Assembly: GCA_003251635.1 (NCBI GenBank)
Contig: QKEW01000008.1
Span: forward strand, 33,489 to 97,488
Direction: 5' to 3'
DNA: 64,000 nt
Source: a bacterium
GTDB taxonomy: Bacteria > Patescibacteriota > Minisyncoccia > Moranbacterales > GWC2-37-73
A program made the position numbers and the translations under genes. The notes below the pieces were generated by a model. That model saw only the letters and a list, made by a program, of their open reading frames with translations. It was not told the origin of the DNA and did no database searches. Below are positions 13,110 through 18,250 of the stretch, in pieces (the stretch's first letter is position 1; each line of letters opens with the position of its first letter).

Positions 13110-13673
13110 TTAACCTTTCTTGTTTTCTCGCAAAGTCATAAAAAGAATAAGTCCGACCATAATCGTTTCCAAAGGTAAAACACCCAGGCCCGGAACCGAC
13201 TCTACACTTGAAAAACCTAAAAAAATAACAAACCTCAATAAAAATCTCCCTAAAGCTTTGTTTGCAATTTTTTTGTATAATCCCCTTTTCTTTGCTCGAG
13301 TGCCTTGACCGGCTAAAATCAACATGAACATGATAAAAATCGAAATGCACCAAGTTATAACAAAACCAAAGGCCATTCCAACCGCCGCCAAAGGTGCTAG
13401 GGCCACAGTGGCTCCTGAGATAAATTCAAAAATCAGCGCCACCAAATCAAAAAGATCCTTAAGTAGCGCCGCCATAAAAGCTGCTACAAAAGCACCTTTC
13501 TGCATCAGAGTCAAAGAGGTGTCCTGTTTTTGAACTTTTTGAGTTTTTTTGCGACCTTCACTAAGACTACTCGTTAAATTTTCTAAAATTCGATCCCGCC
13601 TTCTGGAACTTTCCAGCTCTTCCTGGCGCGAGGAGTTCTCTTCAAAAGTCGAATTAAGAGCCGCCTGGGACAT
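13110..13673 (-). CDS. Membrane protein, T4SS-associated hypothetical
   Basis: Charged N-terminus followed by 3-4 TM helices. Co-oriented and adjacent to the VirB4-like gene. Confidence 0.4.
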   Translation of the reverse strand: MSQAALNSTFEENSSRQEELESSRRRDRILENLTSSLSEGRKKTQKVQKQDTSLTLMQKGAFVAAFMAALLKDLFDLVALIFEFISGATVALAPLAAVGMAFGFVITWCISIFIMFMLILAGQGTRAKKRGLYKKIANKALGRFLLRFVIFLGFSSVESVPGLGVLPLETIMVGLILFMTLRENKKG

Positions 13674-13697
13674 GACTTAATTTATCTAAAATTATGA

Positions 13698-15515
13698 TTA
13701 TTCTTGATCAAACTCTTTTTTGGCTTGTTCGATTTCCAAAAGTTGGCGCGGATCAGATGTTATGATTTGATCTTCAGTATAAGAAGCAATGACTTTGATA
13801 GCCACATGTTTGGCTCCAGCAAATAAAATTCCCTCTCCGACATTACTTTCCAAAAGTAAAAACTTTTCCTGATCAGTAAGATAAAAGGTTTCACTAATCG
13901 CATCCACAGCTGCCGGCGATTGCCTGAGAAGTAACTGCAAGGAAGAGTTGGTAACGATTGGTTTTCCGTAACGAGAAGACATGAAATCGGCAATATCTTG
14001 AGTAATGGTTGTAAGCCCGGTGTAATATTTTCGACAGCGCTTGGCAATTCCAAACAGGAAAGAAGCCGCGTCTTCGTTTTGCATCATCACCCAAGCTTCA
14101 TCCACCACGATCATGCGCTTTTTAAGTTCAGAACGCATTTCATTCCAAATAAATTGCAGTACTAGATACATAGCAATCGGCCTAAGTTGTTCTTCCAAAT
14201 CGCGAATATTGAAAACTACCAACTGATTTTCAACTTTTACGTTGGTTTTTTTATTCAAAACTCCGGCAAAAATACCTTCAGTATATTTTTCCAAGCGCAT
14301 GGCCAGTGATTCACCTCCATTAGAATTTCGCAAAACCTCATAGAGATCTGACATGGTCGGAAAAGAATTTTCGTTCAGGGACTTAAAATTAGATTGAGGA
14401 GTAATGTCTCGCATGGCATAAGTTTCACGAATTGCCACATCCAAAATTGAATCCTCTTCCGGCGTCACCGCTCCCAACATAATGTGCAAAAGTCCAATCA
14501 AGCTAGCAATATTGGAACGCAAAACATCTTCCGGATCTTCATCTGCCCCGATTTTTGGCAAATCGAAAGGATTGATATGAAAATCACTATCCAAAGACAT
14601 CTTAATGAAAGTTCCTCCAACCGTATCACATAAATATTTATATTCATTTTCCGGATCAATCACAATCACATTGGTTCCGACCATCATTGAACGAAATATC
14701 TCCAACTTCACCGCATAACTTTTACCACCACCGGACTTGGCAAAAACCACCATGTTGGCGTTTTCCATTTTGTAACGATCAAACAAAATCAAACTGTTGT
14801 TATGTCGATTGATTCCATACAAAATTCCTTCGTTTGAAGATAAGTCAGCGCTAACAAAAGGAAAAGTAGTGGAAAGTGGCGAGGTGTTAAGATTGTTGGC
14901 TACATCTAATTCATCGTTGGCCAGCGGCAAAGTTGAAGCAAAGCCTTGTTCAACTTTCAAAACCGCTGGTTTTATATAAACCAACTGGGCTTCCAAAATT
15001 GCTTCGATTTCTTGGGCCACTTTTTCCAAATCTTCCAAGGTTTTGGCATAGACCGTAATGTATATTCCAAAACGAAAGAATTTTTCCGTTCCTTGTTGCA
15101 ACTTGTCTCGCAAATCTTCAATGTCTTGCAAAGCCGTTTCCAAAACCGGGTCTCGAACCTTGCCGCCTTCCTGCTCAATATGAATCTGGGACTGAACTTG
15201 GGTAGTGGTTTTACGCAAAGTTTTCAAGATATCCCCCGTATCAACCGGATGAATAAACATCGAGATATTCATCGGGAAATCAATATTGATAATTGGCGAA
15301 AACCAATTAGTGTGCAAATAGCGAGGATAGGCAATAATAAAAAGAGTTCGAGCATAAGTTTCCCCGATTTGAATGTAGTTAGTCGCCAAACGAATGGCGG
15401 CTGGAGCAATCAGGTCGCGGATAGTTGCCACTCCGCGCTCATAAATCGCATCACTGCCCAAAACATCTGGGACTACTGCTTTGTTTTGATTGTTTTTATT
15501 TAAATTAAACAGCAT
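13698..15515 (-). CDS. virB4: VirB4/TrbE/CagE-family conjugal-transfer ATPase, ATPase-domain portion
   Basis: Walker A VVFAKSGGGKSYAVKLEIF, Walker B MIVVDEAW, and a VirB4-type C-terminal region. Confidence 0.8.
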   Translation of the reverse strand: MLFNLNKNNQNKAVVPDVLGSDAIYERGVATIRDLIAPAAIRLATNYIQIGETYARTLFIIAYPRYLHTNWFSPIINIDFPMNISMFIHPVDTGDILKTLRKTTTQVQSQIHIEQEGGKVRDPVLETALQDIEDLRDKLQQGTEKFFRFGIYITVYAKTLEDLEKVAQEIEAILEAQLVYIKPAVLKVEQGFASTLPLANDELDVANNLNTSPLSTTFPFVSADLSSNEGILYGINRHNNSLILFDRYKMENANMVVFAKSGGGKSYAVKLEIFRSMMVGTNVIVIDPENEYKYLCDTVGGTFIKMSLDSDFHINPFDLPKIGADEDPEDVLRSNIASLIGLLHIMLGAVTPEEDSILDVAIRETYAMRDITPQSNFKSLNENSFPTMSDLYEVLRNSNGGESLAMRLEKYTEGIFAGVLNKKTNVKVENQLVVFNIRDLEEQLRPIAMYLVLQFIWNEMRSELKKRMIVVDEAWVMMQNEDAASFLFGIAKRCRKYYTGLTTITQDIADFMSSRYGKPIVTNSSLQLLLRQSPAAVDAISETFYLTDQEKFLLLESNVGEGILFAGAKHVAIKVIASYTEDQIITSDPRQLLEIEQAKKEFDQE

Positions 15516-15519
15516 AACT

Positions 15520-16742: not shown

Positions 16743-16754
16743 ATTTTTTGAAAA

Positions 16755-17414
16755 TTATCCGACAAAAAACAAAGCAATGCGCTTGACCAAAACCATAGCT
16801 GAGAGAGAAATCACAATTCCAATAATCGAATTAAGGGCAATCTTTTTGCCGCGATCAATCTGATTTTCATTACCAGCTGAAGACAAATACATTATACCAC
16901 CTAAAACCAACATCAGAACTGATAAAATTCCAACTAGCGCTAACAGAAAATCCAAGACATTGAGAGAAATCTGAGTCAGGGTCTGAGCTTTTTCAACTTC
17001 TTCACTGGTTTCGCCAGTCCAACCCAAAAGTCCCGATATTTCTTTCAAAAAAGAAGGAGCAGCAATTCCCAAGGTCAATCCGATCAAAGAAGAAGTTATG
17101 GCAGACTTGGCTTTTTCAATCATGCCACTGTTCCCAGCAGAAATGATGTAAAGAACAGCTCCATAAACAATAAAAACCAAGGAAAGCACCACGATAATTT
17201 TCTGCAAAGAGCTTAATAAATTAGAAAGCAAGCCTTCGACTGTATCAAATTTCAAGGGGTTAACAAAAACGGTATTTGTATTAACCGATATTTCACTGCT
17301 GGTACTGGTTTCAGCCGCTAGAACCGAGTTTTGACTGAAAACCATGCTGCCAAAAACTCCAAAACAAAATACTGCCGCAAAAACCAAAAATTTTAGAAAT
17401 GTTTTTCTTTTCAT
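16755..17414 (-). CDS. TrbC/VirB2-like pilin, tandem-duplicated (two pilin modules in one ORF)
   Basis: Signal peptide, then two repeats of a TM-hairpin module carrying the motif Y(I/L)xSAGNxxxxxxxKxxxxxSxIG (LYIISAGNSGMIEKAKSAITSSLIGL and MYLSSAGNENQIDRGKKIALNSIIGI). Confidence 0.55.
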   Translation of the reverse strand: MKRKTFLKFLVFAAVFCFGVFGSMVFSQNSVLAAETSTSSEISVNTNTVFVNPLKFDTVEGLLSNLLSSLQKIIVVLSLVFIVYGAVLYIISAGNSGMIEKAKSAITSSLIGLTLGIAAPSFLKEISGLLGWTGETSEEVEKAQTLTQISLNVLDFLLALVGILSVLMLVLGGIMYLSSAGNENQIDRGKKIALNSIIGIVISLSAMVLVKRIALFFVG

Positions 17415-17449
17415 TTGTTTAAATAAATTTTAAGCACTTATTCCTATTC

Positions 17450-18250
17450 TTACTTAAAAACGCCATCTATCAAAGAACAACACTCCAAACCTTCATCGCA
17501 CTTATCCGCTTCCCCAACCGGTTTCAAAATATAAATTTTTGTTTGACACTGACCCTCTTTTACACATTTGCCATTGGTACCGGCAGCTCTGGACATTGAA
17601 GTTCCGGTGCAGGCCTCCATTTCTTTCAAAACTACTTTTTCAATGCAACATTTTTTTCCAATTGAACAGTCATTGCCTCCAGCCAAAAATTTCATACCGG
17701 TCGGACAATCATAGGCGCCAGCCGGAACTCCAACTTCATAACATTTTCCTTTATCATCAAAACCGCATTTTTTTTCTGTTTCAACCTCTTTTTTATCATC
17801 ACTAGTGTCAACATTAATTTCAACTGTTCCCACCAGTTCACCCTCACACTCAAAATTGCTCCAACTTTTGACCGAAATTCCCAAATCATCCTTGGTTCCC
17901 AAAAGCTGCATCGTATAGTTGACCATCAACCAAGCTGTAAACATTATCACCATTCCAATCAAAGAATTCTTAATAGCATTTTTAGCATTTCCGGTCATAT
18001 CCGATTCTCCAGCGCTAACTATATATAAAATTGAGGCAACACCTAAAATAGTTAATACGATTATAAAAGAAAGTTCCAAGGCTCTATTGATAACACCATT
18101 GATACCCACTAGGAAATGACACAGGGTGCAAGGATCTTCGCCTTCTCCTCCGCAAGGAATTAATCCAGCGGCTGAAACCTGCATTGGGGAAAATAAAATC
18201 AAAAACAGCCAAAATCCAACCAGCACCCCATTTTTCATTCGCTTTTTCAT
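17450..18250 (-). CDS. Pilin-like protein with a cysteine-rich C-terminal extracellular domain
   Basis: Signal peptide and the same pilin module (LYIVSAGESDMTGNAKNAIKNSLIGM) as the neighbouring gene. Then a ~140-aa region with about 20 Cys (CGFDDKGKCYEVGVPAGAYDCPTG...KCC...CDEGLECC). Confidence 0.55.
   Translation of the reverse strand: MKKRMKNGVLVGFWLFLILFSPMQVSAAGLIPCGGEGEDPCTLCHFLVGINGVINRALELSFIIVLTILGVASILYIVSAGESDMTGNAKNAIKNSLIGMVIMFTAWLMVNYTMQLLGTKDDLGISVKSWSNFECEGELVGTVEINVDTSDDKKEVETEKKCGFDDKGKCYEVGVPAGAYDCPTGMKFLAGGNDCSIGKKCCIEKVVLKEMEACTGTSMSRAAGTNGKCVKEGQCQTKIYILKPVGEADKCDEGLECCSLIDGVFK

Follow-up and report, generated by a model that had tools for sequence, protein, structure and literature searches.

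What does a type IV secretion system (T4SS) do on a bacterial chromosome when neither a relaxase nor a coupling protein accompanies it, and what could be the role of pilins that carry more than a pilin domain? Both questions are raised by a gene cluster in a 64-kb window of Moranbacterales DNA (the window is the whole stretch that was analysed, 64,000 nucleotides of contig QKEW01000008.1, assembly GCA_003251635.1). An earlier note on this sequence had described a T4SS-like cluster with a split VirB4 ATPase, a double pilin and a pilin fused to a cysteine-rich domain, and the open reading frames (ORFs) that it listed are all present on the minus strand with the coordinates it gave. We consider it likely that the cluster is a chromosomal T4SS module of the Patescibacteria, here of the Moraniibacteriota, that lacks relaxase and coupling protein and is collinear with the trsB-trsC-trsD-trsE genes of the conjugative plasmid pGO1. 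How such a module would work we infer from related machines.

The minus-strand genes between about 20.3 kb and 9.7 kb all lie head-to-tail with intergenic gaps of 4-59 nt. Read 5' to 3', their order is methyltransferase, solute-binding lipoprotein, PIL1, PIL2x, PrgI, TrsD-like protein, VirB4, p187, ComM, G5/DPBB protein and KsgA. Two Sec-exported VirB2-like pilin genes precede the motor genes, and the core of the cluster consists of the following features:

17450..18250, minus strand: PIL1, a pilin of 266 aa with a C-terminal cysteine-rich ectodomain (Pfam PF18895, 31.1 bits against a cutoff of 26.6)
16755..17414, minus strand: PIL2x, a double pilin of 219 aa, signal peptide plus two VirB2-like helical hairpins in one polypeptide
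17022..17243, minus strand: hairpin module 1 of PIL2x, approximately residues 58-131
16767..16982, minus strand: hairpin module 2 of PIL2x, approximately residues 145-216
16260..16742, minus strand: PrgI/VirB3-like membrane protein of 160 aa (Pfam PrgI PF12666, 35.7 bits against a cutoff of 27; weak match to TcpE)
15520..16200, minus strand: TrsD-like or 'TraC-like' soluble protein of 226 aa, a separate protein homologous to the very start of VirB4
13698..15515, minus strand: VirB4-family ATPase of 605 aa without the first ~180 positions of full-length VirB4 profiles (NCBIfam, Pfam, phmmer)
13110..13673, minus strand: p187, a small polytopic membrane protein of 187 aa directly 3' of virB4, with hydrophobic segments at ~60-127 and 148-182

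The same order is found in the trs/tra genes of the Staphylococcus aureus plasmids pGO1 and pSK41, a subclass of the monoderm (MPF-FATA) conjugation systems, where a VirB2/CagC-like gene is followed by a PrgI-like gene, trsD and a VirB4 gene that also lacks the first N-terminal segment. In pGO1, trsB belongs to Pfam T4SS_CagC (VirB2-like), trsC gives a weak PrgI match, trsD encodes 227 aa and trsE is the VirB4 gene. A CHAP hydrolase, TrsG, likewise has a homologue in our window. In contrast to the double hairpin of PIL2x and the tailed hairpin of PIL1, TrsB is a single hairpin of 105 aa, and pGO1 further encodes the type IV coupling protein (T4CP) TrsK, the relaxase Nes, TrsF, TrsL and a topoisomerase, none of which was found in the window. 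The earlier note had seen no VirD4 or relaxase nearby, and phmmer with TrsK and Nes (one query each) indeed gave no match in the 64-kb window; the large ORFs scanned there are housekeeping genes, with no T4CP or relaxase among them. With neither component detected in these 64 kb, conjugation is unlikely. The other genes of the window encode IF-2, GyrA, S1, a TilS-like protein, a tyrosine recombinase, a DHH protein and tRNAs, and no compositional island was detected at the cluster, hence we regard it as chromosomal. The collinearity with trsB-trsE includes the VirB2/CagC-like gene, which suggests that the pilin came with a monoderm ancestor and was not borrowed from diderm T4SSs, a point that PMC12102498 left open.

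For comparison we used 80 species-level loci, retrieved via the adjacent TrsD-like protein. All of them come from metagenome-assembled genomes (MAGs) of the Moraniibacteriota/Moranbacteria (Parcubacteria), and the T4SS-like cluster of the earlier note recurs among them. In type A loci (L002-L035) the order of the window is kept from the methyltransferase gene to ksgA, apart from contigs that end early, a few missing components and L024, which has a VirB6-like gene upstream of prgI. In type B loci the order is VirB6-like, PrgI, TrsD, VirB4; some of these loci continue with p187 and a pilin whose C-terminal domain is long. Our custom pilin hidden Markov model (HMM) missed most type B pilins, so that the pilin content of these loci is undercounted. 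The prgI gene lies upstream of the TrsD-like gene in 79 of the 80 loci, PIL2x takes the same position in 32 loci, and p187, for which neither Pfam nor NCBIfam gives a match, follows virB4 in 28.

The cluster has most of its features in common with published Patescibacteria T4SSs (PMC12102498; Southlakia epibionticum, PMC10633639). Shared are an MPF-FATA-type VirB4, a separate adjacent TrsD, PrgI/VirB3, PF18895 pilins near virB4, a distant VirB6-like gene, KsgA nearby, the chromosomal location and the absence of relaxase and T4CP. Quinonero-Coronel et al. (2025, PMC12102498) reported the TrsD/virB4 pair, with TrsD adjoining virB4 in 1,664 cases, as well as PrgI, VirB2-like arrays, scarce relaxases and KsgA encoded close to virB4. 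In Southlakia, the T4SS genes are essential, and this extends to the pilin array (Wang et al. 2023, PMC10633639; PMC12857230); in the only species examined so far, the T4SS of Patescibacteria is required for epibiotic growth (PMC10633639; PMC12857230; PMC11665869). Thus, the T4SS, the TrsD/VirB4 pair, pilin arrays and the missing relaxase are already published. Unlike in the published systems, ComM and the solute-binding lipoprotein are fixed neighbours here, namely in the window-type (type A) loci.

The VirB4 ATPase had been described in the earlier note as two separate ORFs, 4 nt apart and out of frame, and this is what we find: the 226-aa ORF ends with the stop codon TAA, followed by AGTT and the ATG of the 605-aa ORF. 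Both the junction and the gene calls recur unchanged in an independent assembly (Logan). The 605-aa protein matches the NCBIfam profile conju_CD1110 with 378.4 bits (equivalog cutoff 325) over profile positions 185-734 of 752, and it is similar to TrsE of pGO1 (phmmer E 2.9e-44). Pfam assigns P-loop_TraG (residues 249-559), AAA_10 and DUF87, and a weak CagE_TrbE_VirB match at residues 49-197. Within the P-loop_TraG match, the translation contains an intact Walker A (AKSGGGKS) and Walker B motif (MIVVDEAW). About 240 N-terminal-domain-like residues precede the P-loop domain. The division into an N-domain ORF and an ATPase-domain ORF, proposed in the earlier note, is therefore correct in that the ORFs are separate, but the larger one is not the ATPase domain alone, and the break falls inside the N-terminal domain. 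The layout of full-length VirB4/TraC/CagE proteins of ~800 aa, with N-domain and P-loop in one polypeptide, is not found in the 605-aa protein. Instead, three NCBIfam VirB4 profiles are each divided between the two ORFs, whose matches complement each other without overlap:

CD1110: profile positions 3-118 by the 226-aa ORF and 185-734 by the 605-aa ORF
VirB4_plasma (894 positions): 103-241 by the 226-aa ORF and 292-893 by the 605-aa ORF
TIGR00929 (792 positions): 18-145 by the 226-aa ORF and 238-724 by the 605-aa ORF

The smaller protein matches the TrsD family NF041427 with an E-value of 5.8e-7 over profile positions 28-199 of 201, at 29.5 bits against a cutoff of 200, while TrsD of pGO1 itself scores 227.6. 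By BLASTP, a stretch of 74 aa aligns with pGO1 TrsD at 30% identity (E 1e-5), hhalign gives a weak alignment (probability 26%), and the profile built from the TrsD-like alignment had no match among PDB sequences. The two proteins are of nearly equal length, detectably homologous and encoded in the same position, although their similarity is remote. Judged by these alignments, the 226-aa protein is remotely homologous to TrsD, whose place in the gene order it occupies, and it stands outside the NF041427 subfamily. Precomputed annotations place it in the fitting Pfam family PF26593 ('TraC-like'), for which the local Pfam copy gave no match. We found 1341 homologues, the best 120 of which are all stand-alone proteins of 213-243 aa. 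Moreover, wherever a Moraniibacteriota locus contains both the TrsD-like gene and virB4 (70 loci), they form two distinct ORFs, delimited by a proper stop and start codon, and the distance between them varies from -83 to +228 nt. The motor is naturally made of two polypeptides, a soluble TrsD/TraC-like protein and a 605-aa VirB4 in which the P-loop ATPase is preceded by the remainder of the N-domain.

The pilin genes depart further from known systems. Pfam recognizes T4SS_pilin (PF18895) twice in PIL2x (69.1 bits, cutoff 26.6), and with the custom HMM the two domains have E-values of 1e-26 and 4e-24, in agreement with the two modules that the earlier note had read in this protein. The motif that the note had seen in the modules, Y..SAG..K...S.IG, is present in both hairpins of PIL2x and in that of PIL1. 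Pairwise, the three modules are 29-34% identical, and the PIL2x modules only ~30%; the tandem duplication of the note is therefore an old fusion and not a recent event. The AlphaFold2 (AF2) model of PIL2x (pLDDT, the predicted local distance difference test score, 79.6) has four helices at residues 59-91, 96-130, 146-178 and 183-218, with pLDDT values of 80-93 in the helices. The family comprises 216 homologues, and the best 120 of these cover 74-100% of the query and hence both modules. Invariant positions differ between the two halves (N52-P53 and W132 are examples), while the N-terminal regions are variable and in some homologues cysteine-rich. The start of PIL2x is ambiguous: public gene calls begin 23 codons later, at M24, and give 196 aa (P0136; L082), whereas the 219-aa start adds a typical, convincing signal peptide (MKRKTFLKFLVFAAVFCFGVFGS...). 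Among the pilin matches are also weak ones to the mycoplasma ICE pilin-like family NF045849 (ICE, integrative and conjugative element).

PIL1 is composed of a signal peptide (~1-27), the segment AAGLIPCG...PCTLCH, a hairpin (47-118), the motif W-x2-F-x-C ending in C135 and a tail of 130 aa; hydrophobic segments are found at 7-33, 52-83 and 92-110. A single PF18895 match followed by this tail agrees with the pilin module and cysteine-rich domain described earlier, although the tail holds 13 cysteines (16 in the whole protein) and not about 20. Four cysteines, C33, C41, C44 and C135, flank the hairpin and are invariant among aligned relatives. The tail contains two cysteine modules:

17645..17767, minus strand: cysteine module 1 of PIL1, residues 162-202, CG-x5-G-x-C-x11-CP-x11-C-x5-CC, six cysteines
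17477..17611, minus strand: cysteine module 2 of PIL1, a divergent second copy, residues 214-258, C-x14-C-x5-C-x15-C-x5-CC

All six cysteines of module 1 are invariant in two alignments of eight sequences, and the second module occurs in four of eight aligned relatives. In the AF2 model, module 1 has short beta strands at a pLDDT of ~60-80, and no known fold was detected for the six-cysteine module, for which defensin-like small disulfide-rich folds (six cysteines, C-terminal CC) were considered. PIL1 as a whole has only 15 homologues, the best with 50% identity, and a profile search with the tail found 33 clusters among 1.84 billion representatives. The cysteine-rich region is thus conserved, though rare, which was one of the points on which the earlier note had made its reading depend. 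In most full-length matches the cysteine modules accompany a pilin hairpin, which they may precede or follow. Among relatives the ectodomain of PIL1 varies in presence, copy number and position: of 28 PIL1 orthologues from window-type loci, 12 lack it, 13 carry it at the N-terminus and four at the C-terminus (one has both).

Several relatives of these proteins deserve separate mention. In P0130 and P0135, both relatives of PIL1, an SLT lytic transglycosylase domain is fused to a T4SS_pilin hairpin, so that a VirB1-like and a VirB2-like module are united in one protein. P0269 (443 aa) has an N-terminal six-cysteine module followed by three pilin hairpins, and P0279 (993 aa) has many tandem cysteine modules, with no hairpin detected. 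P0256 (124 aa) is identical to the cysteine-rich tail of PIL1 except for the first and last residues, which suggests a frameshifted or differently assembled copy of the PIL1 gene in another sample. In six type B loci (L039, L042, L049, L053, L070 and L077), the pilin downstream of virB4 has a C-terminal domain of 165-180 aa. The gene lies at ~16-18 kb in most of the six, and some of the domains end in H-x-H; the pilins of L049, L053 and L070 also have N-terminal cysteine-rich regions. From the H-x-H motif we guessed a LAS-type peptidase, for which Pfam gave neither a match nor other support.

The pilins of diderm systems (VirB2, TrbC, TraA) resemble those described here in their signal peptide, two-helix hydrophobic hairpin, short polar loop and place before virB3-virB4. 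They are, however, single hairpins of ~70-120 aa with no extra domains, while here we find a double hairpin and a 130-aa tail; neither PIL2x nor PIL1 has the plain single-hairpin form of a VirB2-type pilin. C33/C41/C44 and C135 of PIL1 have no counterpart in canonical pilins. By analogy, and only as a hypothesis, these cysteines might staple both termini, as head-to-tail cyclisation does in TrbC/VirB2. The VirB2 paralogue arrays of Bartonella and Anaplasma, associated with antigenic and host-range variation, likewise combine several divergent pilin modules at one T4SS locus. In contrast to them, variation here lies in fused ectodomains and covalent linkage of modules and not in the number of genes. 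Arrays of 2-11 separate pilin genes are described in PMC12102498, with ~25% identity within the Patescibacteria arrays, compared with two pilin genes, three hairpins and 29-34% identity here. A text search of that paper returned nothing on two-hairpin polypeptides or on pilin fusions to cysteine-rich or SLT ectodomains, and in the open-access literature we found no description of multi-hairpin pilins or pilin-ectodomain fusions. The fused pilins are apparently the only unreported features of the cluster. They offer concrete handles on the function of the Patescibacteria T4SS: host recognition may depend on the variable ectodomain of PIL1, and a covalent double pilin constrains the packing of any filament.

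How might these components act together? By homology with VirB-type systems, PrgI and TrsD would tether a VirB4 hexamer to the membrane. VirB4 would then extract (dislocate) the Sec-inserted pilin hairpins from the membrane, and the hairpins would be assembled on the VirB6-like platform into a pilus or a short surface conduit. The well conserved PIL2x may serve as the structural subunit, a covalent pseudo-dimer, and PIL1 as a minor 'display' or adhesin pilin, whose disulfide-rich ectodomain would be exposed outside and could bind a host or partner cell. A surface or attachment filament rather than a conjugative pilus is a reasonable reading and agrees with published speculation. A bolder version can be put forward tentatively, and we think it rather doubtful: the VirB2-type hairpin of Moranbacteria would be a modular display scaffold, with two to three concatenated hairpins or interchangeable ectodomains (six-cysteine, SLT) fused to its ends, and the pilus, built by the T4SS of an ultra-small monoderm bacterium, would consist of covalent pseudo-dimers whose variable, disulfide-rich heads act as adhesins or enzymes and serve to engage the host cell or to breach it. 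If true, this would be a conjugative-type pilus architecture that has not been described so far.

A number of points weigh against a filament-forming T4SS at this locus. The assignment of major and minor pilin is a guess from conservation, and an ectodomain of 130 aa on every subunit may be incompatible with tight helical packing. A Foldseek search of the PIL2x model against the PDB returned only generic helical bundles (E >0.5) and no significant match to a solved pilin, hence the pilin assignment rests on sequence profiles and predicted helices. To our knowledge, no experiment or structure shows a PF18895 filament in any monoderm, and we know of no pGO1-type system that makes pili, even though these systems carry the VirB2-like TrsB. 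Unrelated genes separate the cluster from the VirB6-like and CHAP genes, which are 8-12 kb distant, so that it is from other genomes that we infer their membership. Finally, the search for T4CP and relaxase spanned the 64-kb window with one query sequence each.

Some of these points lead to the alternative that the hairpins do not polymerise but are membrane anchors or channel subunits that hold ectodomains at the surface, with the multi-hairpin proteins being simply polytopic. We regard this as unlikely, though it is worth serious thought. The fusions are diverse and sometimes large (the pilin-SLT proteins P0130/P0135, the three hairpins plus cysteine module of P0269, proteins of 400-650 aa), and the solved pilins gave no structural match. 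Furthermore, pGO1 has the CagC-like TrsB, yet monoderm conjugation is generally described as pilus-less (PMC12102498, PMC12857230). On the other hand, the loop motif SAG...K and the VirB2-type length of the two helices are strictly conserved. F-type pilins, moreover, have both termini on the pilus surface and tolerate added peptides. In Southlakia the pilin arrays are essential and lie inside the T4SS cluster (PMC10633639). We prefer an assembled pilus or conduit.

The next alternative is a machine for the uptake or exchange of DNA, like ComB of Helicobacter pylori or the archaeal Ced system, in which ComM would aid recombination or the imported DNA would be a source of nucleotides. Several observations speak for it. 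ComM is encoded directly downstream of virB4-p187, an adjacency conserved in 27 related loci; VirB4 gives weak matches to the CedB and CedD profiles; and the absence of relaxase and T4CP would suit import better than export. As here, ComB and Ced are T4SS-derived and have no relaxase. In addition, T4SS loci of ABY1 often include comF, recG and radA (PMC12102498), and a review proposes the T4SS as a route of nucleotide acquisition (PMC11665869). Among type B loci, however, L037 is the only one in which ComM was seen, encoded downstream of virB4 but on the other strand, and the adjacency may thus be mere inherited gene order in a compact genome. The CedB match has 49 bits against a cutoff of 700, which is generic VirB4 similarity. 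No ComEC, ComEA or DprA was seen in the cluster, and CedA- and ComB-specific components were not detected here either. Taken together, we judge DNA uptake to be improbable.

A conjugative element, either a remnant or a functional part of an ICE that moves DNA to other cells, is far less probable still. The core is homologous to and collinear with the module of a conjugative plasmid, and the window does contain two recombinases, one of the tyrosine type (5782..6729) and a large one of the serine type (47084..48559). But relaxase and T4CP are not detectable in the 64 kb, the housekeeping synteny around the cluster is strictly conserved in window-type relatives, and a compositional island is absent. 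We interpret the tyrosine recombinase, a member of the Phage_integrase family whose N-terminal domains are SAM-like, as a XerC/D-type chromosome dimer resolvase. A sequencing or assembly frameshift in a single VirB4 gene of ~830 aa, which the earlier note had considered and to which the 4-nt, out-of-frame spacing and the joint coverage of the full VirB4 profile might point, can be practically dismissed in view of the uniform 213-243 aa of the best 120 of the 1341 homologues, the separate genes with their varying gaps in 70 of 70 species-level relatives, the identical junction in the independent assembly, the dedicated family PF26593, the same trsD/trsE pair in pGO1 and the published arrangement (PMC12102498).

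We return to the T4SS module and the genes that surround its core. The following features flank it or may contribute to it from a distance:

18262..19710, minus strand: solute-binding lipoprotein of 482 aa (Pfam SBP_bac_1 and SBP_bac_8), adjoining PIL1 upstream
11566..13092, minus strand: ComM/YifB-type Mg-chelatase-like AAA+ protein (Pfam Mg_chelatase, ChlI, Mg_chelatase_C), directly downstream of p187
10555..11553, minus strand: G5 plus DPBB_1 (RlpA-like) protein (Pfam)
4320..5354, minus strand: LysM-LysM-CHAP peptidoglycan hydrolase (Pfam LysM twice and CHAP), candidate VirB1/TrsG analogue
1..1810, minus strand: VirB6-like polytopic membrane protein (>603 aa, extending beyond the window) with at least 7 hydrophobic segments, ~12 kb from virB4

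The lipoprotein gene keeps its position in 29 related loci, and a homologue was not detected in the type B loci. The cell-wall hydrolases that the earlier note had placed nearby are present as the LysM-CHAP and RlpA-like proteins, whereas Pfam gave no '3D domain' as such but a DPBB_1 match. The LysM-CHAP protein, a possible part of the T4SS, is similar to TrsG of pGO1 (phmmer E 4e-14). The ORF at 1..1810, already called VirB6-like, is polytopic; a Pfam scan gave no match, and NCBIfam a weak one to the CD3337/EF1877 mobilome membrane protein (E 0.005). Its homologue is found directly upstream of prgI-trsD-virB4 in 37 related loci, which supports the VirB6-like role. Promoter and terminator scans gave signals that were not above chance and set no limits for the operon.

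Two further observations concern the records and the rest of the window. The titles of L019, L023, L025-L028, L032, L035 and many others read 'uncultured Bdellovibrionales bacterium', which on Moranbacteria-type contigs is probably a taxonomic mislabel of MAGs. Elsewhere in the window, a group I intron (49470..49710, minus strand, Rfam 86.9 bits) lies within an apparent tRNA-Phe(GAA) gene (49431..49750). After its removal in silico, ARAGORN folds the flanks (GCCTCGGTAGCTCAGTGGTAGA... and ...GTCAGTTCAATTCTGACCCGAGGCA) into a tRNA, with an ambiguous exact splice point. A second group I intron (48762..48977, minus strand, 83.6 bits) is located between tRNA-Gly and the first intron, beside an ORF of 121 aa (48996..49361, plus strand), and its removal in silico gave no flanking tRNA exons. 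The large serine recombinase mentioned above (plus strand; Resolvase, Recombinase and Zn ribbon domains) ends about where tRNA-Gly (48548..48622, minus strand) begins. Near it, the GC content drops to 0.30 at 44001..46000, the lowest-GC stretch of the window, and the recombinase, the tRNA-Gly gene and the GC dip may mark the edge of an integrated element.

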